Virus record (IMG/VR): IMGVR_UViG_3300027763_000003
Span: 1-61,031 of that record
Source: a virus
Lineage: Duplodnaviria; Caudoviricetes
DNA length: 61,031 nucleotides
Reading direction: 5' to 3' (one strand)
Shown here: positions 6,951-61,031 of the stretch, one piece after another
How positions within the stretch are numbered: position 1 is the stretch's first letter
Layout: each line of letters opens with the position of its first letter
Notes under the pieces: model-generated
Database searches by the model: none
Seen by the model: the letters and a program-made list of their open reading frames with translations, nothing else
What the model was told of the DNA's origin: nothing
Program-made: the position numbers and the translations under genes

Positions 6951-7880
6951 ATGACTACCTCCGGCTCAACCACCTTCAATCTTGAGTTTGTAGAACTTGC
7001 TGAAGAAGCCTGGGAGAGAGCTGGCCGCGAGATGAGGTCTGGTTATGACTTGCGTACTGCACGTAGGTCAATGAACCTTATGACCATTGAGTGGGCTAAT
7101 CGCGGGTTAAACATGTGGACGATTGAGACTGGGACCATTACCCTAACCCAGGGTTTGAATACGTATGCGCTACCTACGGACACGATTGATCTACTGGATC
7201 ATGTGATCCGAACCCAGCCTAACGTAGCATCCACCCAGTCTGACTTAAGCATCACCAGGATTAGCGTATCCACTTACGCAACAATCCCCAACAAGTTGAC
7301 TCAAGGGCGTCCAATCCAGGTTTGGATACAGCGTCTTTCGGGCCAAGTGAATCCTACCAGCTCAACGCTCAGCTCAACTATCTCATCCACGGATACAACT
7401 ATAACTCTTGTTACAGTTGTTGGGCTTGCTGGGTCTGGCTACATCCGCCTGGACTCAGAGGATATTTACTACACCTACATCTCGGGTAACACGCTTGGCG
7501 GTGTATTCCGTGGGCAGAACAATACCACCGCAGCATCTCACACTGCTGGCGCTGCTGTTAGTGTTCCACAGCTTCCAGCCATAACGGTGTGGCCTACGCC
7601 AGATGGATCTCAAACGTACCAGTTTGTGTACTACCGCCTGCGTCGGGTACAAGATTCCGGGGATGGTAGCAATACTGCCGATATGAATTTCAGGTTTCTA
7701 CCCGCTGTTACGGCTGGATTAGCCTACTACATAGCTATGAAGGTACCTGAGTTCCAGGGCCGTCTTGATATGCTTAAGGCTGTTTATGATGAGCAATTCA
7801 AATTAGCTGCTGGCGAAGACCATGAGAAGGCTACGTTGCGGCTTGCTCCAAGAATTGCATACATTGGTGGCGGCTATTAA
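6951..7880 (+). CDS. Putative head-tail adaptor / head completion protein with an inserted beta domain
   Basis: Helical N-terminus (EEAWERAG...ARRSMNLMTIEWANRG), VWPTPD motif, C-terminal FLPAVTAGLAYYIA typical of podoviral adaptors. Confidence 0.55.
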   Translation: MTTSGSTTFNLEFVELAEEAWERAGREMRSGYDLRTARRSMNLMTIEWANRGLNMWTIETGTITLTQGLNTYALPTDTIDLLDHVIRTQPNVASTQSDLSITRISVSTYATIPNKLTQGRPIQVWIQRLSGQVNPTSSTLSSTISSTDTTITLVTVVGLAGSGYIRLDSEDIYYTYISGNTLGGVFRGQNNTTAASHTAGAAVSVPQLPAITVWPTPDGSQTYQFVYYRLRRVQDSGDGSNTADMNFRFLPAVTAGLAYYIAMKVPEFQGRLDMLKAVYDEQFKLAAGEDHEKATLRLAPRIAYIGGGY

Positions 7881-24215: not shown

Positions 24216-27200
24216 ATGCCCATTTATGAGTACAAAGGTCAGCAATACGATATTTCTACCGATGACCAGGCAGAGGCAAAAGCTAAGATCCTGAACTACT
24301 TGGGCACACAGGCAGCACCGGCAGCTCCGGAGGCGGGGCTTGCCAGCATTGCTCCACCCAAGATTCAAACAAATGCCGAGGGGCAGATCACCGGGATGAC
24401 TCGTGATCAATATCTGGCTTCCTTGCAAAAGCGTAACGAAGAAACCCCCAGTCGCTCAGCTGGAGAAGCGGCACTGGATGCTGGTATTACTTTACTTAAG
24501 GGTGCGATTGGTTTGCCGGAGGCATATGTCGGCTTGGTCGATATCCCTACGATGGGTTATGCTGGAAAACTTTTGAAGCAGGCTGGCTACAACCCGAAAG
24601 AAGCCAAAGAAATTTTAAATTCCTATCTGTCAGAAGCGCAGCAAAGTGCCGCTCGCAAGGTGGGTGAGGCTGAAGGATTCTTACCAACCCTGAAAGCTGC
24701 AGTTCAAAACCCAAGCGTCATTGCCTCGTCAATTGGAGAGTCACTCCCTCAAATGCTTGGTGGCGCAGCGGTAGGCAAAGGTTTACTGCAAGCTGCTCCC
24801 AAAGTAGCTCCGTGGTTAGCTGGCGCTGCTGGTGAAGGCATCATGGGCGCTGGTAGTGCTGCAGAGCAACTGCGTCAAGAATCCAAAGATGAACTGCTTA
24901 CCGGCAAGCAGGCGGCATCCGCAATTGGTTCTGGCGTATTCACTGCTGGCTTTGGCGCTGCCGCCGGACGGCTGGCGCATAGCCTGGGGTTGGAAGATAT
25001 CAATACCCTGCTGGTTAACGGACCACAAAAATCTGGCTTCAAGTCTGTCCAGGATTTTGCTAAGCGGGCAATTGGTGCTGGAATTTCAGAGGGCTTGTTT
25101 GAAGAATTGCCGCAATCTGCACAAGAGCAGATGTGGATGAACTACGCGCAAGATAAGCCATTGATGCAGGGAGTCGCCAATCAAGCGGCAATGGGCGCAT
25201 TGGCTGGGGCTGCAATGGGTGTTGGTGCAACCGCCCTGGCTGGACGCCAAAAAACCCCGCAGCAAGAACGAGCACAAGTTTTCTCCGATATGCTCAATGC
25301 AGCAGTCCAGGGAAAAGAATTTGATCCTGATGCTATTCCTGCCATTGTTGCAAACCGGATGAGCGCAGACAAAGGTTTTGAGGCTGGGACCAACATTCGC
25401 GTTAATCCCGCTACTGGACGGGCTGAGTCCAAAGTTGAGCCAGCCGCCCCACCGGAAGCTCCGGCAGGCATTGCCACCCCGGCCCCTCAAGCTGCCCAGC
25501 CATCCACCCCAGTTGCAGCGCCATCTGAGTCTCAAGACTCTGCGGCCATGATGCGCGAGCTGTTTGAGGAGCAACCAACTATAACAAATGTTACAGTTGA
25601 TCAGCCACCAACCAAGGTGGAGGAGCCTAAAATTGTTAACTCCTACGATATGGGGGAAGGCACCGAGCTGCGTGTTATTCAATCGCCAACGGGGTATGCG
25701 GTCAATCTATTTGATGCCGATGCCGGCCAATATGTACCCGGTGCCAACCGCATATTTCCAACTGAAAAATTTGGGGATCAGGCATTAAACAAAGCTATTG
25801 ATTTTGCAAAATCCGAACAGGAAAAAATTACTCCACAACAAGGAAAACCAAGTGTCCCTGAAGCCACTCAAACCCAGCAAGCAAAACCGCAAGAACAACA
25901 AGCGCCCAGTGCCGTCGACCTAATAGAGGGTAATGATAAATACGATACACCAGAGTTGCGCCTGCAGCAGAGTGCTGCCCTTGGTGATAATCTGACCAGC
26001 CTGATCCATGATGAAATGGAGTCTTATGGTCGCGCGGCCATTAAGAAGAAATCGCTAACAGACAACTACGGCAAGAAAAAAGATGCATGGGTTGATGCAT
26101 CTGATGCGGCCACCATTGCATTTGGTGCCAATGACTTTAGCGTCTTCCAGCCATACGCAACCCTCTTCCCCAAGACTGCAGCCAAGTTGCAGGCTCATTT
26201 AAAAACTACTTCGGCGCAAGAACAACAAGCTGTTCCGGCAACCCCGGCCAATCAAGAAACAACCCCGGCCAAAGCAGCGCCCAAGGGCTCTGCGTTTCGT
26301 CGTGCTTCTTATGACAAAAACCCATTCCTGACATTCCTGGCAACTCACGGCCTGTACCATGTGAAGGATAAACCTGGAAGCCTGAAGAGGGAGTTTTCCC
26401 CTGACAAGCAAATCATGGTCAGCGGCTACGGTCCAGTGTTTAAAACCTCCGGACGGCAGATGGATGAGCTGCTGCCTTTGGCTATACAAGATGGCTACTT
26501 GCCGCAAGATGCCACTGAGTCGGACCTGGAGCGTTTAATTCAAACAGCAGTTTCCGGCAAAAAAGTGGAGCCTCAATATTCGGAGCAGGGCGCACTCAAT
26601 GTTGCAGCGCAATATGAGGAGCGCATGAATCAAGAGCGCGACGCTTACGAAGAGCGCACCAACCAAACCGATGAAGAATGGTTTGGCACGAGTGAGGCTG
26701 AGTACATGGACCAAACGGCGCGTGAACTCGCTGCCGCTCCAGACGCAGACTTTAAAGCCGTCACCGATGAAGACATTGACTTCATGGATACACCCGCCAG
26801 CAATATATCCATGCGAGCCGCAATGGAAATGCTTGGCTTTACAGAAGAGGAGATTCAAGATGAAGAGCGCAAAGCTGCTGCAAAAACTGGCAAAACTGTC
26901 GCCGGACAAGCGGGTGAAGGTAATCAATCAGGCCAAGCAACTGAAGCTGCTGGCTCAAAAGCGGCAACAAGCGAAGAGCTAGAGCTTGCCACTCAAACCT
27001 CAGAAGAACTCAAAGCAAAACAGGCGGAAATCGAGCGTCTTACAAAAGAGAATGAGCGCCTGTCCAGGCAGGCTGAGGCCAAGGCTAAGGCCGACGAAGA
27101 GGTTGGTGAATTCACGCTAACCGGCAGTAATCGTCCGGCAGATGTGGCGGCAGCTCGCGGACAGAAGGATATCTTTGACCAGGCGGAAGAGACCGCTCCT

Positions 27201-38462: not shown

Positions 38463-38777
38463 ATGGCCGTCACAACAACGCAGCGCAGCCTCAAGTACAT
38501 GAGGGACAACGGCTTCTACGCCGAGGTGGTGGAGCGGTACAACTCCTTCACAAAGCGCAAGAATGACTTTGCTGGCTTCATTGACATCCTGTGCCTGGGA
38601 CAGGGCGCGGTGATCGGTGTGCAGACTACGAGCTGGGGGCACACATCAGACCGGCTGAAGAAGATCCTTGAGCACGAGAACCTGGACATCGTGCGTGACG
38701 CCGGCATCAAGATCGAGGTCCACGGCTGGCATAAGAAGGACAACCGTTGGCAAGTAAAAGTTATCCATGTAGAATAA
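38463..38777 (+). CDS. Small PD-(D/E)xK nuclease (resolvase/VRR-NUC-like)
   Basis: DFAGFIDILCL...GVQTTS...IEVHGW. Confidence 0.65.
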   Translation: MAVTTTQRSLKYMRDNGFYAEVVERYNSFTKRKNDFAGFIDILCLGQGAVIGVQTTSWGHTSDRLKKILEHENLDIVRDAGIKIEVHGWHKKDNRWQVKVIHVE

Positions 38778-38814: not shown

Positions 38815-38840
38815 ACCCCCTGGGCAACTGGGGGGTCTTT
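38815..38840 (+). terminator. Possible terminator hairpin
   Basis: ACCCCCTGG-GCAA-CTGGGGGGT followed by CTTT. Confidence 0.45.
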
Positions 38841-38864
38841 CTGTAACATTGTTATAGTTGAGAG

Positions 38865-39030
38865 CCAACATGCATGGGGATTGGTCTTATCGGGAAAGCT
38901 GCCGGTGACCAGCGGACATATCGTCTGACAAACCAGTCCCCAGCCGTGTTGGTGGTCTATCGGGTTAGCGCCGGTATGAATGCTTCCGTGAAGTTACTGG
39001 ACACACACTGCTTTATGTGAGCCACCAACA
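38865..39030 (+). ncRNA. Putative structured non-coding RNA with alternative stems
   Basis: CCAACA/TGTTGG, TGGGGATTGG/CCAGTCCCCA and TGTTGGTGG/CCACCAACA pairings; no ORF. Confidence 0.45.
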
Positions 39031-39089
39031 AATATTTTTCAAAAAGATCTTGCACACCACAAAATTGGTGTACACTACACTCCGTTGCA

Positions 39090-39180
39090 GTCGTGTGCAA
39101 TAGATTGAAAGCCGTTACTCATGCATTGGCCTCTAGGGATTCTTGGAGGACACGACCCAGTGCAGTAGTAACGGCTTTTT
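39090..39180 (+). ncRNA. c4-antisense-like structured RNA
   Basis: 12-bp stem AAAGCCGTTACT/AGTAACGGCTTT, inner TGCATTGG/CCAGTGCA, bulge ACACGAC complementary to upstream GTCGTGT. Confidence 0.5.
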
Positions 39181-39569
39181 GCATTTACGCGGCAACTTTG
39201 CTGTTGGGATCTATCGGGTTTTGGGTTGGCATGAGGGAAGCGTAGGAAGCCGCAAGGTGTAGTCCGCAGTCCACCAGCCCTACGACGTTCTGACCTACAG
39301 CGAGAGCGCAAAGAAGATGCATGGCGCAATCGGGGGAATTCCATTTGTGGCCCGTGGGTTCAAGTCCTTCGGATAACCCAAATGGTATGGGTGGCCGAGC
39401 TAGACGTTGCCAAGCAGCGGAAAGTACCCATAGGCAGCACAAGCTGGATTGATGCTGCCCCACATGGATGACCGAATGGCTCCGGGGGTGTGGAAATTTG
39501 CCAAAGGGGTTCACTCTCCCTTAGGCAGACTTTTGCCACAAAACTTTACTCATCCACCAGGGGTGTGAA

Positions 39570-39908
39570 ATGTCGAAAAACAAACGATCCAAACGTAGGG
39601 ATAGATTGGCTTCTTCCGGATATGTTTTGATCCACCCAGCGCCAAAACCAAGGCCAGTTGATGTGAAGTCAAGTAACTTTTTATCAACTTACGAATGGCG
39701 CAAAGTTCGCATGATGGCTTTGAAGAAACATGGCTCCAGGTGTCAGTGCTGCGGAGCTTCCCCAAAAGATGGGGCTGTGATGAATGTTGACCACATCAAA
39801 CCACGCAAACTTTTTCCCGATCTGGCTTTGGACCTCAACAATCTTCAAGTTCTGTGTCATGACTGCAATCACGGAAAGGGGAATTGGGACCAAACCGACT
39901 GGCGCTAA
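39570..39908 (+). CDS. HNH endonuclease
   Basis: CQCCG...VDHIKP...NLQVLCHDCNHGK. Confidence 0.9.
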   Translation: MSKNKRSKRRDRLASSGYVLIHPAPKPRPVDVKSSNFLSTYEWRKVRMMALKKHGSRCQCCGASPKDGAVMNVDHIKPRKLFPDLALDLNNLQVLCHDCNHGKGNWDQTDWR

Positions 39909-40009: not shown

Positions 40010-40198
40010 ATGATTGATTGGATGAAGAACCTGTACCGCCCACCATCCCCACAAGCGATGGCGTTGCGTGAACTCGAGTCGGCCAAACGGGAGAAGCTTG
40101 ATGCTGAATCCGGTGTGGACTATGCAAAGTCCGTTGTGGACTACAACAATGCTCGTATTGAGCGCCTTGAAAACTTTCTTTATGGAGAGACAAAATGA
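40010..40198 (+). CDS. Small conserved phage protein
   Basis: ATG 40010 after AAGGAG; RELESAKREKL...YNNARIERL. Confidence 0.65.
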   Translation: MIDWMKNLYRPPSPQAMALRELESAKREKLDAESGVDYAKSVVDYNNARIERLENFLYGETK

Positions 40199-40620
40199 AC
40201 TGGAACATCTTTAAGCGCATCGAAGAACTGGAAGCTACTGTTAACAAGTTGCGCCTTCAATTGGTTGAGCACACCTTTAAAATTGATGATCTCGAAAACA
40301 ACTCTAACAATGTTACAGTTGAACAGTTCCCCATCATCGACTATGGCCGCGCAATAGTGAAAGGTGAGGGTCAGCCAATCCCCATGAGTGAGTCCGACCT
40401 CAAGCGTGAGCTCCTGGCACAAAGAAAGCGCGATTACTACCAGCGCAACCGCGAACAGATCCTGGCTAAGCAGCGGGCTAAAAAGCGTGATGAAGAGCGT
40501 AAGCGCAAGTCTCGTGAGTACGCCAAAAAGTACTACGCCAAGAAGAAGGCTGAACAGATGGCGAAACATGCTGAACAGCGGTTCCAAGAGATGTCGAAGC
40601 TTGGTCCGATAGCGGCATGA
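40195..40620 (+). CDS. Hypothetical protein with a basic helical C-terminus
   Basis: RDYYQRNRE / REYAKKYY repeats. Confidence 0.65.
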   Translation: MNWNIFKRIEELEATVNKLRLQLVEHTFKIDDLENNSNNVTVEQFPIIDYGRAIVKGEGQPIPMSESDLKRELLAQRKRDYYQRNREQILAKQRAKKRDEERKRKSREYAKKYYAKKKAEQMAKHAEQRFQEMSKLGPIAA

Positions 40621-40766
40621 AAGCCCTGTACGACCTTATCACCCGAGGTCTGTCAGCCATAGGAATGTCAGCGGTGCTGGTGTTCCTTTTGGGATACACC
40701 TACGCGCAGATCCCGTTGGTGTTCAAGACCTGTACACCATCCATGATTGATCGGATTTTGAAATGA
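40617..40766 (+). CDS. Small membrane protein
   Basis: MKALYDLITRGLSAIGMSAVLVFLLGY..., ATGA-coupled at both ends, read by hand. Confidence 0.5.
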   Translation: MKALYDLITRGLSAIGMSAVLVFLLGYTYAQIPLVFKTCTPSMIDRILK

Positions 40767-41068
40767 AAACAAGCAAAGTGTTTAAAGCCGCCAAGAAGCA
40801 ACTTTGGAATGGCGTTGGTGATTGGATGGATCACCCAAAAGAACGATACATCTGCCATGCCATTTACTGGCGTGTTAATTGCACAAACGATGAAGCCCGT
40901 TTCACCAAAAAACTCATTGCATTGTTGCTTGAGGGCCACGACACCTTGGAGGAATGGCTGTTGGCAAAACACGACATCAATGGGTTTTCCGACACAAAGA
41001 AATTGCAACAGACCCGCCAAGCATGGCTTGACCACTTGGTGAAGCATTACGAAAGCATTGGAGATTGA
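40763..41068 (+). CDS. Hypothetical protein
   Basis: YICHAI...RQAWLDHL. Confidence 0.6.
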   Translation: MKTSKVFKAAKKQLWNGVGDWMDHPKERYICHAIYWRVNCTNDEARFTKKLIALLLEGHDTLEEWLLAKHDINGFSDTKKLQQTRQAWLDHLVKHYESIGD

Positions 41069-41069
41069 A

Positions 41070-41327
41070 ATGAAACTACAAGCCGGTAACCCCAACCTGA
41101 TGCGCAAGAACCCTGACGCGTCTCTTGCCGCTGTGCCCAACAAGCTAGGTGACAAGAACCCAGCTCGCTATGTGCGTGGCGGATACGTGCCTATGGAGAA
41201 AGGCCCTGATGTTGTACCCCCGCCGCAAATGAACTTATGGAAGAGGGACAAGTACGTCCCCGAGAGCATGGCCCCAGTACGCCGTGGCGCTGATGACTTC
41301 CTTCGTGTGCAAAGCAGGGGGTTCTGA
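41070..41327 (+). CDS. Hypothetical protein
   Basis: ATG 41070; RRGADDFLRVQSRGF C-terminus. Confidence 0.6.
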   Translation: MKLQAGNPNLMRKNPDASLAAVPNKLGDKNPARYVRGGYVPMEKGPDVVPPPQMNLWKRDKYVPESMAPVRRGADDFLRVQSRGF

Positions 41328-41415
41328 TGTGGCCTTTCCCCCCATTCCCGAGGCCGGTGCCTGCTAAAGCACCACCGCTTAAACCTAACCCTGACAACTA
41401 TGAGGAGTCCCCATT

Positions 41416-41697
41416 TTGACTGAACGAATAATCACAGACAGCAACGGACGCAAACACATTACAACTGAACCGTTGAGGCCAAGACTTGACCAAGGCCCAG
41501 ACTACGAGCGTGGTTTTGTTGATGGGATGATGCATTTAACACAAACCAGCGTGTACAAGGCGGTCAATGCAATTGCACAACAAGCGATAGAAGCCCTAGC
41601 ACAGCCAGCGCAGGGATGGAAGTTGCGCGAGGTTTACTTTGACGAACATGGAGAGCCGATCATGCACAGAGAGCCAGCGCAGGAGAAGAACACATGA
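41416..41697 (+). CDS. Cassette-type accessory protein (LAQPAQ module, EKNT end)
   Basis: TTG start after GAGGAG; contains the array repeats. Confidence 0.55.
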   Translation: MTERIITDSNGRKHITTEPLRPRLDQGPDYERGFVDGMMHLTQTSVYKAVNAIAQQAIEALAQPAQGWKLREVYFDEHGEPIMHREPAQEKNT

Positions 41698-42215
41698 CTA
41701 AAGAAGAAGCATTGGAGATTGCACTTGATTACATCAATCGCACAACATACTGGACTGAAGGCCGAGACCGGCACGACACTTTGAAGGCTGTCAAAGAAGC
41801 CCTAGCACAGCCAGCGCAGGAGCCTAGCGCTACACGCCCATGTCGCAGTTGCGATGGAACTGGCGAGCGCTTTACAGGGATTGACGAAGCACCTACATCA
41901 ATCTGCAAACCGTGTAAAGGAACTGGACAAATAGCCTTGGCACAGCCAGCGCAGGAGCCTGTGGCGTGGATGTATTGGCAAAATTGTTTAAACGACGATG
42001 GCACTCAAACTGGGCCTTGGGTTAGACGGCTATCAAATACAAAGCCACAGGATTCAGTCATTTACAAAGACGTTACTGCCCTCTACGCCGCACCACCACA
42101 GCGCCCGTGGGTAGGGTTGACAAGGGAAGAGTCTTTGTCAATTCTTGATGACTGCCGAACTCCAATTACCTATATATCAATGATTGAAGCCAAACTCAAG
42201 GAGAAGAACACATGA
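41694..42215 (+). CDS. Cassette-type accessory protein with a CxxCxGxG Zn-finger insert
   Basis: LAQPAQEP x2 flank CRSCDGTG...CKPCKGTG; PQRPWVGLT; EAKLKEKNT. Confidence 0.7.
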   Translation: MTKEEALEIALDYINRTTYWTEGRDRHDTLKAVKEALAQPAQEPSATRPCRSCDGTGERFTGIDEAPTSICKPCKGTGQIALAQPAQEPVAWMYWQNCLNDDGTQTGPWVRRLSNTKPQDSVIYKDVTALYAAPPQRPWVGLTREESLSILDDCRTPITYISMIEAKLKEKNT

Positions 42216-42823
42216 CTAAAGAAGAAGCAACATGGAGATGCTCTCACGGCTGGTTGCGGGGAGAGCAGTGTGAGACATGCAAGGAAACGATGACTAAAGA
42301 CAAAGCATTGAAGCTGGCGCTTGAGGCGTTGGAGAAGAGTGTGGCTACCTGTTTTGATAGGTACGCTCATGAGCAAGTAATGAGCAGACCAGAGCACTTC
42401 ATTAACCAAGCCATCATCACCATCAAAGAAGCCCTAGCACAGCCAGCGCAGGGGCCTGACCGCCAAACATTGCAAGCGAATGGGACGCACCCAGCACCAT
42501 GCGCTCGACACTGCGAAGCACAAGCCTTTAAGGTTGAGATACGCAACTTGAAGGCGCAGTTGGCACAGCCAGCGCAGGAGCCGGTGGCTGAATTTAAAAA
42601 ATCGCATCGTGTAAATTACCCGCTTCTAACGTGGAATGATGGCTATGTTGCAAAGGTTGGCGCAAAGCTCTACACCACTCCACAACAGCGCCCGTGGGTA
42701 GGTCTGACGGATGAGGAACGCAAAGAAATCATGCGCTACGAAAAAGATTTTTGGGGTGTAAGCGGATGGGAGTGGAAATGCATGGAAGCCCTCGAAGCCA
42801 AACTCAAGGAGAAGAACACATGA
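42212..42823 (+). CDS. Cassette-type accessory protein
   Basis: LAQPAQ x2, QRPWVGLT, EAKLKEKNT. Confidence 0.7.
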   Translation: MTKEEATWRCSHGWLRGEQCETCKETMTKDKALKLALEALEKSVATCFDRYAHEQVMSRPEHFINQAIITIKEALAQPAQGPDRQTLQANGTHPAPCARHCEAQAFKVEIRNLKAQLAQPAQEPVAEFKKSHRVNYPLLTWNDGYVAKVGAKLYTTPQQRPWVGLTDEERKEIMRYEKDFWGVSGWEWKCMEALEAKLKEKNT

Positions 42824-43014
42824 AAGCCGTTATTGAAGTGACGGACTGCCAAGATTGTCCTTTTGCAGGAGACCACCGTGGACACGGTGAATGCTGGACT
42901 GAGTGCCGTCATCCTCAGCATAACCAAGGCCCATACGGAAACATACTTTGGGGTTGCCAAGAAAAGTTTAAGACCATCCCAAATTGGTGTCCACTCAAGG
43001 AGAAGAACACATGA
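42820..43014 (+). CDS. Small Cys-rich protein
   Basis: CQDCPF...CRH...IPNWCPLKEKNT. Confidence 0.6.
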   Translation: MKAVIEVTDCQDCPFAGDHRGHGECWTECRHPQHNQGPYGNILWGCQEKFKTIPNWCPLKEKNT

Positions 43015-43289
43015 GTACCGGCTGGCCTATCACCATGTTCCTGTTGCAGGACTGCGACCGCAAGCTGGCTCGTTGGTTCTCAAGCAGGCTGGATGCACAG
43101 GCAGTTATCCGCAGGCAGTGGCCTGACGTTGTAAAAACTTATTGGAGAAAGACATGAACAATTTATTTGAGTTGATGGAGGGTGCTTGGATTTTTGCTAT
43201 TGCATTTTTTGTGCTACTCACCATGCCAATATGGGTGCTGCCGTATGCTGCATTTAAATGCTGGAAAGCAATCCGAGCAAGGGGAAACA

Positions 43290-43805: not shown

Positions 43806-44102
43806 ATGCTATCCACCTACCCGCCATGCTTCAGCTCGGAGAAGCAACACAAGGAATGGAAGGCGCTTGCTTTTAGAAGCAATTTAAAAAGCTTCCACAT
43901 CTGCGTTGACTGCACACCCAGCTACCAGGCTGAGATGATGTCGGTGGCGCGATGCCAATCCCCCGATGTTGATGTCAATGTCCTGCACCAACGGGAGATG
44001 GAAGAAGCCATGAAGCAAGAAGTGACCGAGGGCAAGATCAAGCCGGTGGTGGATCATTGGACGGAGATGATTAACCAACTAACCCCAAAGGTTAAAAAAT
44101 GA
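43806..44102 (+). CDS. Cys-containing hypothetical protein
   Basis: PPCF...CVDCTPSYQ..M...RC. Confidence 0.6.
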   Translation: MLSTYPPCFSSEKQHKEWKALAFRSNLKSFHICVDCTPSYQAEMMSVARCQSPDVDVNVLHQREMEEAMKQEVTEGKIKPVVDHWTEMINQLTPKVKK

Positions 44103-44264
44103 AAAATGACGTACCAAACTTTGCCGCATGGAGCCACAGTAATCTGGCTAAATTTTCGGAGGAGTCGTACATTCGTATGCAAGCACAGCATGAGGCCATC
44201 AAGCAATTGCAAGGTGACCTTAAAGATGCAATGGTTCAAGTAAGACAGTTACTCAAGGAAAAAA

Positions 44265-45068
44265 ATGACTGAAAAAATTTCGCTGGAAAAAATCCGCCTC
44301 GATGGTGGAACGCAGCCCCGCAAAGAGCTTGATGGCAGCCTTGTACAGCACTACAAAGAACAGCTACTGGAAGGTGCGGTCTTTCCACCTGTCGATCTGT
44401 ACTTCGATGGCAAGCACTACTGGTTGTCTGATGGATTCCATCGCGTACACGCACACACCCAGGCTGGCTACAAAGAGATTTTGGGCAATGTTATTCAGGG
44501 CACAAAGCGTGATGCATTCATTGCCTCCTTGAAGGCAAATTCCAAGCACGGCAAGCCACGCAGCGCAGAAGAGCGCCGCTACGTTGTTCAATTGGCTCTT
44601 GAGGATATCGAGCTAGGGGAGTTTTCAGACTACCAGATCGCTGTCGCCTGCGATGTGAGCAAGATGACTGTTGGTCGCATCCGCAAGGCATTGGGGCTCG
44701 AGAAGTCCTCCAGCATTGGCAAAGATGGCAAGCGCCGCGATACCACAAGCATTGGACGCAAGCCTGCACCAATAGAGCCCGACTATGAAGAGCCCACAGA
44801 AGATGAAAAAATCAATGAGCTGGCAACTGAATTTGGCGTGATCTCGGAGGAGAATACTCGGCTCAAAGATATGCTTGCAGTTCAGTCTATGCCTGTTTCG
44901 GAAGAGGCAAAGCAGGAGGTGCAAGACACAATTACTATGTTGCGCGAGCAGGTCAAAGACCTTGAGGCACAGCTTTATTCCATGACCCAAAGTCGGAATG
45001 AGTTCATGTCCAAGAACACTGAGATGTTGAAGCAAATCAACTACTGGAAGAAACGCGCAGAGAAGTAA
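44265..45068 (+). CDS. ParB/Srx-like N-terminal domain protein with HTH and coiled coil
   Basis: GTQPR...FPPVDL...LSDGFHRVHA; SDYQIAVACDVSKMTVGRIR (HTH). Confidence 0.8.
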   Translation: MTEKISLEKIRLDGGTQPRKELDGSLVQHYKEQLLEGAVFPPVDLYFDGKHYWLSDGFHRVHAHTQAGYKEILGNVIQGTKRDAFIASLKANSKHGKPRSAEERRYVVQLALEDIELGEFSDYQIAVACDVSKMTVGRIRKALGLEKSSSIGKDGKRRDTTSIGRKPAPIEPDYEEPTEDEKINELATEFGVISEENTRLKDMLAVQSMPVSEEAKQEVQDTITMLREQVKDLEAQLYSMTQSRNEFMSKNTEMLKQINYWKKRAEK

Positions 45069-45104
45069 ACACCGAAGCTGGGCGGTTTCCCAGCAGGAGA
45101 GAGC

Positions 45105-46565
45105 ATGATAAATTTAAGACCGCATCAAGCGGATGTTGTGGCTAAACTCGACCAAGGATTTGCCCAGCACCGCTGCCAACTGTTGTATGCACCAACAGGA
45201 TTTGGCAAAACAGAAGTAGCCATGCACGTTATGGCTGAACACGCCAAGCTAGGTATCAGGGTGGCAATGGTATTGGATCGGATTGTGTTGGTTAACCAGA
45301 CCAGCACACGCCTTTCCAAGTACAAAATCCCGCATGGCGTCATGCAATCTGGTCACTGGCGATACCGCCCCCATGAGAGCATCCAAGTCTGTAGCGCACA
45401 GACCCTGGAGCGCCGGGCTGACTTCCCGGACGTTGGCCTCCTGATCATTGACGAGTGCCATGTCCAGCGCAGACAGGTCATCCAGTACATCCAAGACAAT
45501 CCGCAAGTAAAGGTCATTGGCCTGACCGCCACCCCATTCACAAAAGGATTGGGAGACACCTACACCCATGTGGTTGGTGCAAAGCCCACAGGAGAGCTGA
45601 TTGAGGATAAATGGCTTGTTCCACTCAAGATCTTCATTGCCAAAGAGATCGACATGACCGGAGCCAAGAAGGTTGCTGGCGAGTGGTCGCAAGACGAGGT
45701 GAGCGCCCGTGGCATGAAGATCACCGGCGATATAGTTGATGAGTGGATACAGAAAACCAACCAGCTGTTTGGTGGACCGCGCAAGACTGTAGTTTTCGCC
45801 TCCGGTGTTGAGCATGGGCGTGACTTGGTGCGACAGTTTGCTGAGCGCGGTTATCACTTTGTGTCCATCAGCTACAAAGAAGAGGATGACTTCAAGCGGG
45901 AAACCATTGAAGACTTCAGCCGTCCCGATACAAAGATCACCGGCCTGATCGCAACCGACATCCTCACGCGAGGGTTTGATGTGCCTGACGTAATGATTGG
46001 CGTGTCGGCTCGACCCTTCTCCAAGTCCTTCAGCAGCCATGTCCAGCAGATGGGGCGCGTCATGCGTCCATGTGAGGGTAAGACGCACGGCGTTTGGCTT
46101 GATCACAGCGGCAACTATCTCAGGTTCCGCAAGGAGTGGGATGACCTGTTCGCTGATGGTGTGACCGAGCTTCCAGATGGAGGTGAGGCAACCAAAAAAG
46201 AACCACCCGAGAAGGTTAAAAAAGAGTCCAAGTGCGGTGGATGCGGCGCGTTGTGGGTTTGGCCTGGACGGCAATGCGGTGAGTGCGGCTGGATCAGACC
46301 CATGAAAGAGGTTCTGAACGTACCAGGCCACATGATTGAGCTGGAGACAGGCAAAAGCTCCACCGCTGAGAACCAAAGCTTTTACTCCGAGCTGTTGTAC
46401 TACAGTCGAATGCGCGGCTACAAGGATGGCTGGGCGGCGCACAAGTACAAAGAGAAGTACGGGGCATTCCCTCGCGGCTTGGGATCGGAGACAAAGTCCC
46501 CCAGCCACAAGACACTCAATTGGATTAAGAGTAAAGCTATCGCATACGCAAAGGCTAGGGCATGA
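45105..46565 (+). CDS. Superfamily 2 helicase with a C-terminal Zn ribbon
   Basis: APTGFGKT, DECH, TATP, RGFDVPD, QQMGRVMR; CGGC/CGEC. Confidence 0.9.
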   Translation: MINLRPHQADVVAKLDQGFAQHRCQLLYAPTGFGKTEVAMHVMAEHAKLGIRVAMVLDRIVLVNQTSTRLSKYKIPHGVMQSGHWRYRPHESIQVCSAQTLERRADFPDVGLLIIDECHVQRRQVIQYIQDNPQVKVIGLTATPFTKGLGDTYTHVVGAKPTGELIEDKWLVPLKIFIAKEIDMTGAKKVAGEWSQDEVSARGMKITGDIVDEWIQKTNQLFGGPRKTVVFASGVEHGRDLVRQFAERGYHFVSISYKEEDDFKRETIEDFSRPDTKITGLIATDILTRGFDVPDVMIGVSARPFSKSFSSHVQQMGRVMRPCEGKTHGVWLDHSGNYLRFRKEWDDLFADGVTELPDGGEATKKEPPEKVKKESKCGGCGALWVWPGRQCGECGWIRPMKEVLNVPGHMIELETGKSSTAENQSFYSELLYYSRMRGYKDGWAAHKYKEKYGAFPRGLGSETKSPSHKTLNWIKSKAIAYAKARA

Positions 46566-47347
46566 GTTTTGAAGAATTTGCACAGTCGCATGGCTTGTTG
46601 ATTGACCATGTGGTGGAGGGGCGCTGGATGCGAGTTCCAACAACAGATCACCCGCGCAAAAAGAACGGGGCGTACATTTTTGACGGCAGAAGCGGTTTGG
46701 TGCAGAACCACGCAGTCCATGAGTCCCCGATCCGATACCAGTCGAATGAGCCGTATGTGCCTGACCCACACGCAGCAGCCAAGCGGGAGCGCAGAATCGC
46801 AGAGCAGCAACAGAAACAGGTGGATGCGGCAAAGAAGGCTGCATTCATCTATAACAATGTTACAGTTGAACCGCACCCATACCTGATTCGCAAAGGGTTT
46901 GCAGAGCCAGCCAAAGTATGGAAGGGGCTGCTGACAGTCCCGATGCGGGTGGATGGCAAGCTGGTCGGGCTGCAGTTAATCCAAGCAGACGGAACAAAGA
47001 AGTTTTTATCAGGGCAGCGCACAAAAGGAGCCAGCCTGGTCATTGATAACCACGGCAGGAATGTATTGGTGGAGGGTCTTGCGACAGGCTTATCAGTGCG
47101 CCGCGCTCTCAAATCCATGCGCCAGCGGTACACAATCCACGTTTGCTTCTCGGCTGGGAACATGGTAGAGATCGCCCAGTCGGTGCAAGACCCGTTGGTG
47201 ATTGCCGACAACGACCCGATGGGGATAAGTATTGCTAAAAAAATAGCCTCGCGCTATTGGTTAGGCGAGGCTGGTGAAGACTTCAACGACTTTGAGCAGA
47301 GGGTCGGAGTCCAGGCAGCTGCCGAGTCCCTCCGCCCGTTCTTCTAG
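46562..47347 (+). CDS. Toprim-domain primase-like protein
   Basis: HPYLIRKG, LQLI..DGTKKF, VEGLATG, IADND, DFND. Confidence 0.85.
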   Translation: MSFEEFAQSHGLLIDHVVEGRWMRVPTTDHPRKKNGAYIFDGRSGLVQNHAVHESPIRYQSNEPYVPDPHAAAKRERRIAEQQQKQVDAAKKAAFIYNNVTVEPHPYLIRKGFAEPAKVWKGLLTVPMRVDGKLVGLQLIQADGTKKFLSGQRTKGASLVIDNHGRNVLVEGLATGLSVRRALKSMRQRYTIHVCFSAGNMVEIAQSVQDPLVIADNDPMGISIAKKIASRYWLGEAGEDFNDFEQRVGVQAAAESLRPFF

Positions 47348-48020: not shown

Positions 48021-48091
48021 GATTCTCTCCTTGTTACAGTTGCAGCCATCGAATGATGACCCACAAACCCAGCTCGCTGGGCTTGTAGATA

Positions 48092-48513: not shown

Positions 48514-48578
48514 ACTCTCGCCTTTCTTTGTGGTGGGTCACATTTGCCCCCAAAGCCCCGCGCGCGAGGCTTTGAGTG

Positions 48579-49316: not shown

Positions 49317-49379
49317 GGGTTGCCTTTCATTGGTTAGGGGTAGCCCGTAAGCCCTGCGCGTCAGGGCTTACAAATAGCC

Positions 49380-50327: not shown

Positions 50328-50793
50328 AGTGGCGTCCTATAGGTAAGCGAAAAGGGTATAAGCGAGGGCGCAGCCAATAGCTACAACCAGCGCAGCAGCA
50401 GCCCACGGGCTGGGGTGATTGGTGGGGGTGTAGTGCTCACGCATCATGAGCCCCTAGCTGTTTTTGAATGTAGGCCAGCGCGAGCCATAGCTTGGCAAAT
50501 GTCCGGCTTTGTCCGGCGTAGTTAGTGACAATCCAACCGGCAGCGCCTGGTTCTAGTGTGTATTTCACAGTGCAGCCCCATCATGGATAACGTCCGCCAG
50601 CATTACTGTGACGTCATAAGCTTTTCGAGCTTTGAAAAAAGCGGCTGCGAGCTGCTGGGCGGCGTATGAGCTGGGCGCGTGTACTGTTGTTTGCTTGCCG
50701 CGATAAAACGCAATATAGGGTCGCATGGTTAGCCTTTTGGGTTGTCGGCAAAATCGCCGTCTATACCCTCGCGGGAGGGCATAGGCTGCAGTT

Positions 50794-51341: not shown

Positions 51342-52070
51342 ATGGCAAAGCAAACCACGCAAAAACTAACGCGCGAGCAAATCAAGGCAGGCTTGGACAC
51401 TATCCCAGTAGAAGTGCTTCTATCGGCTGGTAAGGGTAAGACACCACAGCTCACAGCAAAACAGAAGGCATTCGCTCATGCAGTAGCGCTAGGGAAACCA
51501 AAGGCTCAGGCCTACAGAGAGAGCTACAAGGCAGACGCCACACCGGCAACAATACACACAGCCCCGTATGAGCTGGCAGCAAACCCTGCGGTCGCTCGGG
51601 AAGTGGAAGCCTATAAGTTGGCCATCGAGGCTGAAAAACATCGAACACCCCTACAACTGAAGGCTTTACTGGTGCAGCAGCTGGTTGCCCATAGCCTGGA
51701 CGATGACTTCCCCCCAGCGTCACGGGTGCAGTGTCTCAAGCTGCTGGGCTCGCTGTACGATGTAGGCGCGTTCATTGAGCGCAAAGAGATTACGACAGTG
51801 TCGCGCAGTGACGATATCCGCACTCGCTTGCTGTCCAGGCTGCAGGCCGTCACTGTAGACGCTGAGCCGGTAGATGATGCGCTCGATTTGCTCGCTGAGA
51901 TCAAGAGCGCCAAGGCCGGCAGCGACCCCACCGCACCCGTACCCCCCGAATCAGGCGCGCCGCGCGCGGGTCCGCCTACACATACTATTCCACACATTCG
52001 ATCTGAAGAAGAATCCAATCCAGTTGATGATTCAGTTGATGATTCAGTCGATGATTTTGACCAACTGTAA
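51342..52070 (+). CDS. terS: Terminase small subunit (putative)
   Basis: LTAKQKAFA...AQAYRESY HTH-type N-terminus; upstream of TerL. Confidence 0.65.
   Translation: MAKQTTQKLTREQIKAGLDTIPVEVLLSAGKGKTPQLTAKQKAFAHAVALGKPKAQAYRESYKADATPATIHTAPYELAANPAVAREVEAYKLAIEAEKHRTPLQLKALLVQQLVAHSLDDDFPPASRVQCLKLLGSLYDVGAFIERKEITTVSRSDDIRTRLLSRLQAVTVDAEPVDDALDLLAEIKSAKAGSDPTAPVPPESGAPRAGPPTHTIPHIRSEEESNPVDDSVDDSVDDFDQL
52021..52056 (+). repeat. 12-nt tandem repeat x3 (CAGTTGATGATT)
   Basis: Encodes PVDDSVDDSVDD at the TerS C-terminus. Confidence 0.85.
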
Positions 52071-52163
52071 CAAAGTTATAGTTGAAACACCCCCCCGGTC
52101 TGTTTCTGTACAAAAATGGGGTGGGGGTATATTTTTTTAACAACTGTAACAATGTTATAGATG
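52062..52163. promoter_or_regulatory. Tandem palindromic operator-like sites
   Basis: CAACTGTAACA-A-AGTTATAGTTG (52062-52084) and CAACTGTAACA-A-TGTTATAGATG (52141-52163). Confidence 0.7.
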
Positions 52164-52208
52164 AAACATCCAAAGCTACTACATACCGTAAAGAAGAAGG
52201 AGTACTAC

Positions 52209-52430
52209 ATGACTGAGAAGCAGAGGACTGTCTTCCTTGTGATAGATGAGTACTGGAAGAATTTTGGCTATGGGCCGTCCATTGATGACATCATGTACCA
52301 GACTGGTGATAAGGGGCGGGGTAATGTTCATCGGATTGTGAAGAAGCTTTGTGAGCTGGGGATTTGCAAGCGGATGAGCAGGAGCGCTCGAAGTGTGCGG
52401 CCAAGCTATTTGTCGATGAGGAATATATGA
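52209..52430 (+). CDS. LexA-type DNA-binding-domain-only protein
   Basis: MTEKQRTVFLVIDEYWKNFGYGPSIDDI...NVHRIVKKL matches the LexA winged HTH; no peptidase domain; AAGGAG RBS before ATG 52209. Confidence 0.75.
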   Translation: MTEKQRTVFLVIDEYWKNFGYGPSIDDIMYQTGDKGRGNVHRIVKKLCELGICKRMSRSARSVRPSYLSMRNI

Positions 52431-52681
52431 AGACAATCATCCATGTGAATCAACATGTTATCAAGGCCAACAAGAAGACTGGCGCGAATGACCCTGTGCT
52501 GACGGTGAAAACCTACAAGGACAACAGATACGCTCATTTTGTTCGGATCAAGGGCGACAGTACTATTGTGTACTCGCCTGACAAGCCTTTATCTTGTGGA
52601 GCGCATGTTTGGATAGAGACACACGGGGATGTGATCCTGGATGAAGACTACTTTGCGGCTCTTGGCCCTTGCAGTAAATGA
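52427..52681 (+). CDS. Conserved small phage protein
   Basis: IHVNQHVIK.N...LTVK...YSPDKPLSCGAHVWIET. Confidence 0.7.
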   Translation: MKTIIHVNQHVIKANKKTGANDPVLTVKTYKDNRYAHFVRIKGDSTIVYSPDKPLSCGAHVWIETHGDVILDEDYFAALGPCSK

Positions 52682-54185: not shown

Positions 54186-56636
54186 ATGTCTATTGAAAAA
54201 TCACTCTCCTCCGCTCCAATGGGTTTGGAATCACTTGCACCTCCAGAAAATGATGGAATTGAGATTGAGATTGAAGATCCGGAGTCAGTTGATATCCATA
54301 TTGGTGATACTGAAATAAAAATTGGAAGCGTTGAAGATGATTTTGATGCCAACCTGGTTGACGAGCTGGATTCAGATGTAGTTAGCCAGCTTGTTTCGGA
54401 GTTGATTGAAGATTTTGAAGATGACGTTAACTCCCGCAAGGAGTGGATGCAGACCTATGTAGACGGACTCGAGCTACTGGGTATGAAAATTGAAGAGCGG
54501 GCTGAGCCCTGGATTGGCGCTTGCGGTGTTTATCACCCACTCCTGTCAGAAGCAGTGGTTAAATTCCAGGCCGAGGTGATGATGAGCACCTTCCCTTCGG
54601 CTGGACCCGTCAAAACACAGATCATTGGCAAAGAAACCCCAGAAAAGAAGCAGGCTGCTACCCGTGTGGCTGCAGATATGAATTATGAACTCACGGATGT
54701 GATGACAGAGTTCCGCCCTGAGCATGAGCGTATGTTGTGGGGCTTGGGTTTGGCTGGTAATGCCTTCAAGAAGGTGTACTTTGACCCAAATCTTGACCGC
54801 CAAACCTCCATTTTTGTACCGGCTGAAGACCTGGTTGTCCCTTATGGCGCTTCAGATCTGCAAACTGCTGACCGGATTACCCACGTTATGCGGAAAACGG
54901 AGAATGAAATCCGTAAACTGCAGGTTGCTGGCTTCTACTCGGACATTGATCTGGGAGAACCCAACAATAACTTGGATGATGTTGAGAAAAAGATCGCAGA
55001 GAAGATGGGATTCCGTGCAAGTACGGATGACCGCTACAAAATCCTGGAGATCAACGTCAATTTGGACCTGGAAGGGTTTGAAGATACAGATAAAAACGGT
55101 GAACCAACCGGTATTGCCCTGCCATACATTGTTACAGTTGAAAAAGGCAGCGAAAAATGCCTGGCAATCCGCCGCAACTGGGATAAAGACGACAAGCTCA
55201 AGAGCAAACGCCAGCACTTTGTGCATTACGGCTACGTTCCTGGCTTTGGCTTCTACTGCTTTGGCTTAATCCACCTTGTAGGCGCGTTTGCTAAGTCCGG
55301 AACATCTATTCTGCGCCAACTTGTAGACGCTGGAACCCTGGCTAACCTACCAGGCGGCTTTAAGACCCGGGGATTGCGTGTTAAGGGTGACGACACACCA
55401 ATCGGCCCAGCGGAATGGCGTGATGTTGACGTACCTAGCGGGACTATTGCTGACAACATCATGGCTCTCCCATACAAGGAGCCAAGCCAAGTACTGGCAA
55501 TGCTGCTGGACAAGATCGTGGACGAGGGACGGAAGTTTGCTTCTGCCGCCGATATCCAGGTGGCTGATATGTCCGCCAACTCTCCTGTCGGCACAACCCT
55601 GGCTATCCTTGAGCGCACCCTGAAAGTAATGACGGCGGTACAAGCCCGCATTCACTACTCCTTCAAGCAAGAGCTGATCCTGCTGCGCGACATCATCCGC
55701 GACTATACGCCTTCGACGTACAGCTATGAGCCAGATGAAGGATCACCCAAGGCTAAGCAGTCGGACTATGACCTTGTTACAGTTATCCCAGTATCGGACC
55801 CCAATGCAGCCACGATGGCGCAGAAGATTGTCCAGTACCAGGCTGTCATTCAACTATCTCAGCAAGCTCCTGATATCTACGACCTGCCGCAACTGCACCG
55901 CCAGATGTTGGATGTACTGGGTATCAAGAATGCAGAGAAGCTGGTCAAGCTTGAGGAGGATGAGTTGCCGGTTGATCCAGTGACTGAGAACATGAATGCA
56001 CTCAATGGCAAGTCCATGAAAGCTTTTATATCCCAGGACCACAAGGCCCACATGACGGTCCACCAGATGTTCATGCAAGATCCAATGATCATGCAGACCA
56101 TCGGCCAGAACCCAAAGGCAAACCAGATCATGGCCGCACTGCAAGCTCACAATGCTGAGCACTTGGCCTTTGAGTACCGTAAACAGATTGAGCAGCAGAT
56201 GGGTGTACCCCTACCAGCCCCGGGCGAGCCATTGCCAGAGGATGTGGAAGTGCAGTTGTCTCAACTCATGGCTCAAGCTGGTCAGCAAGTTAATCAAGCC
56301 AACTCAGCCAATGCCCAGCAGCAGCAAGCTCAACAGCAAGCTCAAGACCCGCTCATTCAAATGCAACAACAGGAACTACAACTCAAGAACGCAGAGATCC
56401 AGCGCAAGCAACAGAAGGATCAGCAAGAGATGCAGCTTAAAGCCAGCCAGCAACAGTTGGAAGGTATGAGCCTTGAGAACAAAAAGCAAGTGGACATGGC
56501 CCGCATTCAGGCTGAATCTATTAATGCCCAGATGCAAGTTCATTCTGCAGAAGCTATTGCTCAAGCCAAATTGCAGGCAGAGAATGAACGTGAACGTCAA
56601 CGCCTTATGGCTAGTATGTACAAGGGTCAAATATGA
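54186..56636 (+). CDS. Portal protein with a P22-like C-terminal helical barrel
   Basis: 816 aa directly after TerL; HPLLSEA, FKKVYFD; Q-rich coiled tail. Confidence 0.85.
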   Translation: MSIEKSLSSAPMGLESLAPPENDGIEIEIEDPESVDIHIGDTEIKIGSVEDDFDANLVDELDSDVVSQLVSELIEDFEDDVNSRKEWMQTYVDGLELLGMKIEERAEPWIGACGVYHPLLSEAVVKFQAEVMMSTFPSAGPVKTQIIGKETPEKKQAATRVAADMNYELTDVMTEFRPEHERMLWGLGLAGNAFKKVYFDPNLDRQTSIFVPAEDLVVPYGASDLQTADRITHVMRKTENEIRKLQVAGFYSDIDLGEPNNNLDDVEKKIAEKMGFRASTDDRYKILEINVNLDLEGFEDTDKNGEPTGIALPYIVTVEKGSEKCLAIRRNWDKDDKLKSKRQHFVHYGYVPGFGFYCFGLIHLVGAFAKSGTSILRQLVDAGTLANLPGGFKTRGLRVKGDDTPIGPAEWRDVDVPSGTIADNIMALPYKEPSQVLAMLLDKIVDEGRKFASAADIQVADMSANSPVGTTLAILERTLKVMTAVQARIHYSFKQELILLRDIIRDYTPSTYSYEPDEGSPKAKQSDYDLVTVIPVSDPNAATMAQKIVQYQAVIQLSQQAPDIYDLPQLHRQMLDVLGIKNAEKLVKLEEDELPVDPVTENMNALNGKSMKAFISQDHKAHMTVHQMFMQDPMIMQTIGQNPKANQIMAALQAHNAEHLAFEYRKQIEQQMGVPLPAPGEPLPEDVEVQLSQLMAQAGQQVNQANSANAQQQQAQQQAQDPLIQMQQQELQLKNAEIQRKQQKDQQEMQLKASQQQLEGMSLENKKQVDMARIQAESINAQMQVHSAEAIAQAKLQAENERERQRLMASMYKGQI

Positions 56637-60596: not shown

Positions 60597-61031
60597 ATGG
60601 CACGTTCTACTTTCGAAGGCCCTATTCTGTCGGGCGACAACCGTTTTGGCCCTCAACGCAATGTGGGCTATACCACACTGACGCAAAACGGCTACTTGGA
60701 TCTACTCAACCTGACCGCTAACACGGCAGGCTACTCCGGCGGCTCCAGCCAGTTTGTTGTAGGTAACAACATCCCAAATGGCAACGCGACCATTTACACC
60801 CCATCTTCTACTGTGCCCTTGGCCCAGTCTACTGCTGTGGTACCGACTGCTGACACTACCAGCAATATCTATCGTGGCTTTGTGATGTACATCCCAACCG
60901 GATCTGACATTGACATTCCAATTATTGACGTAGCAGTGGTTCCTACTGGTGGCACTATCACCACTATTAAAATGTATGTATCCAATACATTTACTACTGA
61001 AGGCGGCACTCCTTTGTATGGCTCTGTATCA
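60597..61031 (+). CDS. 5' part of a putative virion structural protein following the capsid gene; continues across the circular join to 382
   Basis: ATG at 60597 after AAGGA; reads MARSTFEGPILSGDNRFG... and is open to the end, in frame with ORF 32..382. Confidence 0.85.
   Translation, partial: MARSTFEGPILSGDNRFGPQRNVGYTTLTQNGYLDLLNLTANTAGYSGGSSQFVVGNNIPNGNATIYTPSSTVPLAQSTAVVPTADTTSNIYRGFVMYIPTGSDIDIPIIDVAVVPTGGTITTIKMYVSNTFTTEGGTPLYGSVS
60905..61031. repeat. Terminal direct repeat (copy 2)
   Basis: Exact copy of 1-127. Confidence 0.95.

Follow-up and report, generated by a model that had tools for sequence, protein, structure and literature searches.

The window analyzed here is the complete IMG/VR virus record IMGVR_UViG_3300027763_000003 (Caudoviricetes), 61,031 bp in length. 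It carries repeated copies of a dyad-symmetric site built from the half-site CAACTRTAACA and its inverted counterpart, some lying inside protein-coding genes and others between genes, including a tandem pair at the boundary of the gene encoding the small terminase subunit (TerS) and a gene encoding a LexA-like protein. A gene encoding a ParB-like protein lies elsewhere in the window (Table 1). The sites are a conserved, selected network, and it is very probable that they are bound by protein and make up a docking network. Of the proteins that may read them, the ParB-like protein is the candidate that we tentatively prefer, at a little short of an even chance.

Exact copies of CAACTRTAACA number 10 on the two strands of the window, against a mean of 0.06 in dinucleotide-preserving shuffles, none of which (0 of 100) reached 10. 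Full palindromes are present with a spacer of 1 nucleotide (nt) in five places and of 2 nt in two, whereas their expectation in the shuffles was 0.00 and no match occurred in any of them. When both arms were scored against ACTRTAAC with 3 to 5 nt between them, eight sites had 0 or 1 mismatches of 16, none had 2, and the background began at 3; the eighth full site is the degenerate copy in the portal gene. All of the palindrome and half-site coordinates listed in a first-pass annotation of this sequence hold, as does its count of about 10 exact half-sites where fewer than 1 would be expected by chance. Seven of the half-sites lie within called open reading frames (ORFs), compared with a mean of 0.41 (maximum of 3) when synonymous codons were permuted inside each called ORF with every protein sequence kept; none of 500 such shuffles reached 7. 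The enrichment thus persists over the codon-shuffled background against which the annotation had proposed to judge it, and its claim that the motif is kept despite codon constraints is borne out.

The two arms are unequal, and the sites are not perfect palindromes. The strong arm, CAACTGTAACA, is exact in eight places, and the partner arm (CAaCTATAACa) is weaker, being exact twice as CAACTATAACA and carrying 1 to 3 changes elsewhere; both lone half-sites are strong arms. All six of the six intragenic copies share the same orientation and the same frame, reading GTT-ACA-GTT (Val-Thr-Val), which stop codons in the opposite orientation could partly account for. The copies that are not intragenic are located at the joints of transcription units.

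Table 1. Sites and associated genes in the window (coordinates are those of the 61,031-bp record; aa, amino acids)
Feature	Position	Strand	Spacer; exact half-sites (strand)	Context
Full site	7396..7419		2 nt; 7409 (-)	Inside ORF 6951-7880, tail-fibre-like (PHROG)
Full site, both arms exact	25576..25599		2 nt; 25576 (+), 25589 (-)	Inside 3002-aa giant ORF
Intergenic site	38838..38860		1 nt; 38850 (-)	2 nt past a terminator-like hairpin after gene 38463-38777; heads a ~700-bp non-coding stretch; syntenic in G009 and G010
Full site	40299..40321		1 nt; 40311 (-)	Inside ORF 40195-40620; syntenic in G006
ParB/KorB/Noc-fold protein without partner	44265..45068	+		267 aa: N-terminal ParB/Srx domain, helix-turn-helix, long C-terminal helices
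Full site	46846..46868		1 nt; 46858 (-)	Inside primase gene; syntenic in relatives; amino acids there vary with motif type
Lone strong arm	48032..48042	-	48032 (-)	Abuts, on the 5' side, the Shine-Dalgarno sequence of the leftward gene with its ATG at 48019; a GC-rich hairpin lies upstream of the arm
TerS gene	51342..52070	+		phrog_51 at E 1.8e-6; neighbors the tandem pair, on its upstream side
Distal copy of tandem pair	52062..52084		1 nt; 52062 (+)	Overlaps TerS stop codon
Intrinsic-terminator-like hairpin	52087..52138	+		C7 ... G-rich stem, then T run; between the tandem copies; same arrangement in relatives
Proximal copy of tandem pair	52141..52163		1 nt; 52141 (+)	Right arm holds the ATG at 52161
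Winged-helix gene, LexA N-terminal domain only	52161..52430	+		89 aa; internal ATG at 52209 would give 73 aa
Lone strong arm	55130..55140	-	55130 (-)	Inside portal gene
Degenerate full site	55763..55785			Inside portal gene; conserved in G006 and G008

The 104-aa ORF at 38463-38777, which sits immediately before the 38838 site, has no family match and is 89 to 99% identical across the relatives G006 to G010, among the most conserved of the small genes. The non-coding stretch on the other side of the site (38861-39569) contains blocks conserved in G009, such as GCATGGGGATTG and CAGTCCCCAGCCGTGTTGGTG. No tRNA, tmRNA or Rfam match was found in this stretch, which might encode a structured RNA of unknown kind or serve as an origin of replication.

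Conservation of the sites in related phages

Five near-complete relatives each contained 8 to 15 matches to the pattern AAC-NN-TAAC-N2-5-GTTA-NN-GTT, compared with 0 to 1.2 in block shuffles. Among these five, the primase site is syntenic in all (5/5) and the 38838 site in two, and the sites before the LexA-like gene are present in G009 and G010 and degenerate in G006 to G008. The primase site was followed further in the 22 relatives that could be aligned without gaps (5 of the 27 matches were skipped for gaps), and its TAAC-N3-GTTA core is kept in most of them, being degenerate in G006 and reading GAAC ... GTCA in G017. The amino acids encoded at this site switch (Tyr/Phe/Cys at one position and Thr/Lys/Ser/Arg/Ile at another) with the motif type of the genome, the codons being TTT...AAA in TT-type genomes and TGT...ACA in TG-type genomes. 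Because the residues follow the motif type, the DNA signal is under selection even at the cost of protein sequence; as judged from these alignments, the sequence of the proteins bends to keep the network in the relatives.

What the family keeps is a core of (T)AAC-N3/4-GTT(A). The earlier proposal of a CTRT-N9/10-AYAG core, likened to the CTGT-N8-ACAG box, does not survive this comparison, since the relatives keep (T)AAC-N3/4-GTT(A) and replace CTGT by CTTT, CATT, CTCT and others. Each genome has its own preferred variant: CAACTGTAAC in G000, G007 and G008, CAACAGTAAC in G006, CAACTTCAAC in G009, and AACTTTAAC in G010. A second clade uses ACATTAAC, ATATTAAC or TAATTAAC, and the variant of G016 is CTGGAAC. 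The exact half-site of the window has few matches in the relatives because their motifs differ. The complete 60.5-kb genome G011 (L260-L262) contains 12 copies of GGTAACGTTACC within 2 mismatches, compared with 1 for a reversed control; these copies, for example at 8466, 23221 and 56294, have the half-site of the window with a spacer of zero. G012 and G014 contain just two perfect copies, of CACTATAAC-N4 or CAACTATAAC-N4, and G002 contains six, three of them in tandem before the LexA-like gene. A scan of IMG/VR for a variant with a TATATC core returned 116 stretches, among which a single, already known contig was related.

The position upstream of the LexA-like gene, after TerS, is occupied by 1 to 3 copies in most of the clades examined, in a survey covering 182 loci, 154 of which had a parsable LexA-like gene. 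Besides the tandem copies of G002, the sites found there by clade are GGTAACGTTACC, TAAACGTTTA (twice) and GGGTAAC-N4-GTTACCC. The exception is the clade whose LexA-like recognition helix reads GNV[AS]RKM, in which no palindrome was found within 260 bp of the gene; in G012 and G014 there is one palindrome ~0.5 to 0.9 kb upstream. The placement of sites before this gene that was first noted in the window extends to most of the clades examined but not to this one.

Candidate readers of the sites

The product of the gene at 52161-52430 is a true homologue of the LexA DNA-binding domain. It matches PF01726 (LexA_DNA_bind) at an E value of 4e-6 (27 bits, above the cut-off of 23.7) and TIGR00498 at 2.1e-6, in the latter case over the DNA-binding domain only (LexA residues 4 to 67), and the top matches of a 72-sequence profile to the PDB are all LexA. 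An AlphaFold model of the 89-aa protein (predicted local distance difference test [pLDDT], 87.8) has 1lea and 3jso as its top Foldseek matches, with a root mean square deviation of 1.5 Å over 65 residues of the LexA N-terminal domain, and the positions aligned with the base-contacting residues of LexA (G52, G54, N55, and R58) are invariant or nearly so. No C-terminal S24 peptidase/dimerization domain with its cleavage site was found, the ORF ending at residue 89, just past the wing, and the following ORF matches no Pfam family. Without that domain, the protein cannot undergo RecA-triggered cleavage. The first-pass annotation was correct in describing a LexA-type winged helix without a protease domain, as the two family models, the PDB profile and the fold agree, but its start codon at 52209, giving 73 aa, is less likely than the one at 52161. 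The protein probably has 89 aa, because the 51 nt from one ATG to the other are kept in frame in relatives, with changes mostly in third positions, because other gene callers choose a start of the 52161 type (89 to 97 aa), and because the N-terminal extension folds as a confident beta-hairpin in the model.

Relatives of the LexA-like protein were confirmed by tblastn in 160 cases in IMG/VR, the best 80 at 82 to 100% identity. A large protein collection yielded 243 clusters, and the 120 listed measure 73 to 114 aa, within a range of 48 to 156 aa outside which longer forms would fall; no match was found in 50,697 deposited phage records. Translational coupling (ATGA) links the LexA-like gene to an 84-aa ORF at 52427-52681 (phrog_8676). 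This ORF was considered as an obligate partner and ruled out, because G008 alone among 10 relatives has it.

The ParB-like protein encoded at 44265-45068 matches phrog_1033 at an E value of 1.2e-14, and a profile search of the PDB returned the ParB N-terminal domain 7o0n at 4.6e-6 and Spo0J at 4e-4, which identifies an N-terminal ParB/Srx domain. The top Foldseek matches of its AlphaFold2 model (pLDDT, 80.2) are ParB, Noc and KorB, including the KorB structures 8qa8 and 8qa9, over ~145 to 155 residues that span the N-terminal domain and the helix-turn-helix (HTH). The central HTH is formed in the model by helices at residues 122 to 129 and 133 to 143, and Pfam HTH_23 matches it at an E value of only 0.005, below the cut-off. 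Residues 179 to 266 are modeled as long helices, which could be the dimerization part. This fold is typical of dimeric palindrome-binding proteins and, to our knowledge, all of the solved relatives among the matches bind palindromes. No ParA-type partner was seen, in that no plausible ORF contains the deviant Walker A motif KGGxxK[ST] and there is no ParA among the PHROG matches for the part of the ORFs that was scanned. Both genes are present in 28 of 28 family genomes, and the ParB-like protein evolves faster than the LexA-like one, at 29 to 87% identity.

Coarse co-variation between protein and motif fits the ParB-like protein. Across the family, an HTH helix of the form S-x-M-T-V-G/S-R accompanies xxTAAC cores, and, in the sequences compared, the helix departs in exactly the three lineages with a departing motif: SHTTVIR accompanies TGGAAC in G016, SHPFVGK accompanies GGTAAC-N0-GTTACC in G011, and SQSFVAG accompanies TACTAGTC-N-GACTAGTA in MW202545. 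The last of these (MW202545.1 in GenBank; L278/L279) shares the ParB-like protein (34%), helicase, primase, TerL and portal, and no LexA-like gene was detectable in it. Its palindrome, which is unannotated, occurs in eight copies (at 65, 10175, 10202, 27596, 34032, 43565, 49118, and 49147). Two of these are inside the parB-like gene, and the gene that follows TerL has a pair immediately ahead of its ribosome-binding site. Two other phages that have a ParB-like gene and no LexA-like gene also contain recurring palindromes, MT835519 a 3-copy palindrome, one copy of which is 19 bp past the matched part of the ParB-like gene, and MW202898 a 2-copy palindrome within ~250 bp of that gene. No recurring palindrome was found in DSL-LC04, which has neither gene. 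Taken as sequence comparisons, these results favor the ParB-type protein at least as strongly as the LexA-like protein, and what the first-pass annotation named as an alternative binder has become the preferred candidate. In this proposal, a ParB/KorB/Noc-type protein without a partner would bind the palindromes as a dimer. Docked at the copies that closely follow terminators, at the one on a ribosome-binding site and at the one on the start of the first late-operon gene, it would act as a gate on re-initiation or on read-through to the transcription unit that follows. The copies within genes would be extra loading or roadblock sites, as for KorB acting from OB operators on RK2, and the LexA-like gene, which is the gene most tightly placed under the sites, might encode a small cofactor that does not set specificity. 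The existence, selection and conservation of the sites and the folds of the two proteins are established; we infer both the identity of the binder and its effect on transcription.

Several observations weigh against the ParB-like protein as the reader. Neither Pfam nor NCBIfam calls it a ParB at an E value of 0.01, and its box II reads G-F-H-R-V-H-A, not the GERRxRA of the canonical CTP-binding box, which makes a CTP clamp doubtful. No copy of the motif lies in or near its own gene (44100-45200), where the best score is 5 mismatches of 16. The agreement between helix and motif is coarse and does not extend to a fine scale, as an N in the HTH occurs with TTTAAC in G010 and with TATAAC in G014, and an A occurs with several motif classes, so that the HTH residue fails to predict the variable bases. 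The family sites entering the HTH comparison were selected by visual inspection from a larger set of palindromes, and the relatedness of the genomes inflates the co-variation counts, leaving only about three independent contrasts. In MW202545, a YdaS/Cro-like HTH gene beside the parB-like gene is a possible alternative reader. The palindrome families of MT835519 and MW202898 are small and were counted without a shuffle control, and the search of DSL-LC04 used arms of 8 nt, against 7 nt in the others. The AAC-N4-GTT core and the constant place of sites upstream of the LexA-like gene also fit the rival reader. A one-residue code in the ParB HTH (K or P with T[GA]T, S with ATT) was tried and is contradicted by G014 and the A class.

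That rival reader is the LexA-like protein itself, which would bind the palindromes, repress its own operon and occupy the other copies, a reading that is possible but doubtful. Besides its homology to the LexA DNA-binding domain and its presence throughout the family, it is favored by the 1 to 3 copies between TerS and its gene in most clades, distant ones with other site sequences included, and by the proximal copy covering its start codon. The near-invariant base-contact positions match the near-constant AAC, and the xAAC-N4-GTTx core is laid out like the Gram-positive SOS box, GAAC-N4-GTTC. The co-variation of motif and recognition helix expected of such a reader is not what the comparisons show, however. 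LexA-like proteins are identical between L080 and L088, with TGTCAC and TGTAAC, respectively, and between G000 and G006, which favor CT[GA]T and C[AT]GT; G009 (TT[CT]AAC) and G016 (TGGAAC) do not differ in helix or wing; and the same reading head accompanies perfect palindromes with changed cores in L106 (TATATC) and L112 (TATTCC). The converse is seen in G012 and G014, where another helix (GNVARKM) is paired with the same CTATAAC-N4 motif; in addition, one helix accompanies spacings of both 0 and 3 to 4. The protein has no evident dimerization domain, the network of MW202545 exists without it, and its high identity in the best 80 loci, where the sites drift, suits a conserved, perhaps host, target. 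Arm-to-arm correction of quasi-palindromes could render some of the symmetric changes neutral, yet the pattern would still be unlike that of a specificity determinant, and the LexA-like protein is not the better candidate. An I/V position in its helix seemed to track TG versus TT in six genomes, a rule that fails in L061, L069, L080 and L088.

Fine-scale motif changes are not explained by residues of either candidate, and this leaves room for a different protein of the phage, with its gene in the rapidly changing early region (~40.7 to 43.1 kb), to read the sites and to co-evolve with them in the way of immunity repressors and their operators. G000 and G006 share most genes at ~80 to 100% and differ in motif, and the stretch from 40700 to 43126 has no match in G006, the closest relative, while the genes flanking it are ~80 to 100% identical. 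Small ORFs without a known function make up this hypervariable cassette. A reader encoded there is unlikely, as no DNA-binding domain was found in these ORFs, which gave only a weak DnaJ zinc-finger match, and they lack the family-wide conservation of the network. It is quite unlikely that a host protein, such as host LexA or another global regulator, binds the sites with the phage proteins as bystanders: although the motif core resembles Gram-positive-type SOS boxes, and three of the five matches of the LexA-like gene in a genome collection fall on contigs assigned by binning to Microbacteriaceae (Rhodoluna among them), the binning of short contigs is weak evidence of host, and the motif varies between close relatives even in spacing (0 versus 3 to 4). 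Very unlikely, finally, is that the sites act as nucleic acid structure, whether DNA cruciform or DNA or RNA hairpin, or as promoter or packaging (pac) signals. In G000, G001 and G002 one arm carries TG and the other TA, giving a G-T wobble on one strand only, which upstream of the LexA-like gene is the sense strand, and TGTTATAGT resembles an extended -10 element. Against these readings, arm mismatches in the relatives, read by eye, are of all kinds (A-A, A-G, and C-T) and not mainly G-T, a 1- to 2-nt center cannot loop without opening pairs, and the sites match no Rfam family; as a promoter, the 52062 copy would fire into the terminator and the 48032 copy would point antisense, and 8 to 10 copies speak against a pac site.

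Other features of the genome

The record has a direct terminal repeat of 127 bp (1-127 and 60905-61031), within which lies a 23-bp palindrome, AAATGTATGTATCCAATACATTT, at 66 and 60970. Its closest deposited or cultured phages share only ~42 to 44% identity in the portal protein, and a megablast search of 8 kb against deposited phages gave no match. PHROG and Pfam scans identified virion proteins, including the capsid protein and portal, together with the giant protein, Erf, an exonuclease, an HNH endonuclease, the ParB-like protein, helicase, primase, TerS and TerL; neither an integrase nor an RNA polymerase turned up in the part of the ORFs that was scanned, and the window contains no tRNA genes. 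The PHROG matches of the giant ORF (24216-33224) are all of unknown function, and its counterparts in relatives are only 26 to 52% identical, while other virion genes are far more conserved there. The HNH endonuclease gene (39570-39908), which has a counterpart in none of 10 relatives, was likely acquired recently as a mobile gene. The spaces between leftward genes contain GC-rich hairpins (ACAAACCCAGC-N4-GCTGGGCTTGT) at 48063-48086, 48551-48574, 49347-49371 and 50761-50784; the first form has two copies each in G006, G008 and G009. Their probable role is that of terminators, or of processing sites, in the leftward operon.

Relation to known systems

The closest mechanistic model is found on the IncP-1 plasmid RK2, where KorB acts from OB operators with KorA as its small partner (PMC11790492). 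There, as would be the case here, a ParB-family protein uses dispersed palindromes as a gene control network and not as a centromere, the sites lie both near and far from promoters, and a small DNA-binding protein is encoded alongside (PMC11790492). Unlike that system, the replicon here is viral, the CTP motif is degenerate, many of the sites are intragenic, the window has no site at the ParB-like gene, and the small protein is LexA-like and not KorA-like.

The closest published phage phenomenon is the set of dyad repeats in Cluster O mycobacteriophages such as Corndog, 17-bp elements (TGTTCGG-N3-CCGAACA) with invariant arms that occur in more than 30 copies between and inside genes; their binder and function are unknown, and the authors predict a dimeric DNA-binding protein (PMC4351075). 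These phages resemble the present one in having dispersed dyads in and between genes, in not being obviously temperate and in encoding a protein with a ParB-like domain (PMC4351075). They differ in that the sites here number 8 to 10, have one strong and one weak arm and another sequence, and belong to unrelated phages. The stoperators of Cluster A mycobacteriophages are asymmetric sites of a monomeric immunity repressor of temperate phages, oriented with transcription (PMC9283540, PMC4351075). Many sites genome-wide, genes included, are common to both systems. The six intragenic copies here have a single orientation, for which stop codons could account in part, but the present sites are dyad-symmetric with one stronger arm, and no integrase was seen among the scanned ORFs.

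The LexA-like protein shares with LexA the N-terminal fold, and the xAAC-N4-GTTx layout is that of the Gram-positive box, but an 89-aa protein without the S24 peptidase/dimerization domain is unlike LexA. ParB-parS, Noc-NBS and SopB resemble the proposed arrangement in pairing ParB-fold proteins with several palindromes, some possibly intragenic, and the IR1-4 sites of SopB are dispersed. SopB is that of the prophage-plasmid N15, for which the sites IR1-4 are named (PMC7205306). Unlike in ParB partition systems, no ParA-type partner was seen here, nor is there evidence of a plasmid prophage state.

A more elaborate, rather unlikely possibility is that this is a virulent freshwater phage with a KorB/KorA-like, two-protein silencing system, in which the ParB-fold protein would load at the 8 to 10 palindromes and the ultra-conserved protein consisting of a LexA DNA-binding domain only would be a co-repressor at operon starts or an uncleavable LexA mimic on host SOS boxes. 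If this were true, one small gene would tie the timing of the phage to the shut-off of the host damage response.

Dispersed dyad repeats of phages have been in print since at least 2015 (Cluster O), their binder and function being unknown (PMC4351075). The present family is an unusually good handle on them, as it offers at least 160 related contigs, drift of the motif between close relatives and only two conserved candidate readers. If the LexA-like protein reads the sites, a stand-alone LexA DNA-binding domain would act as a phage global regulator, of which a limited search of the literature found no example. If the ParB-fold protein reads them, plasmid-style gene control of the KorB kind would extend to lytic-looking phages. 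The intragenic sites clearly exemplify a DNA signal that takes precedence over protein sequence.

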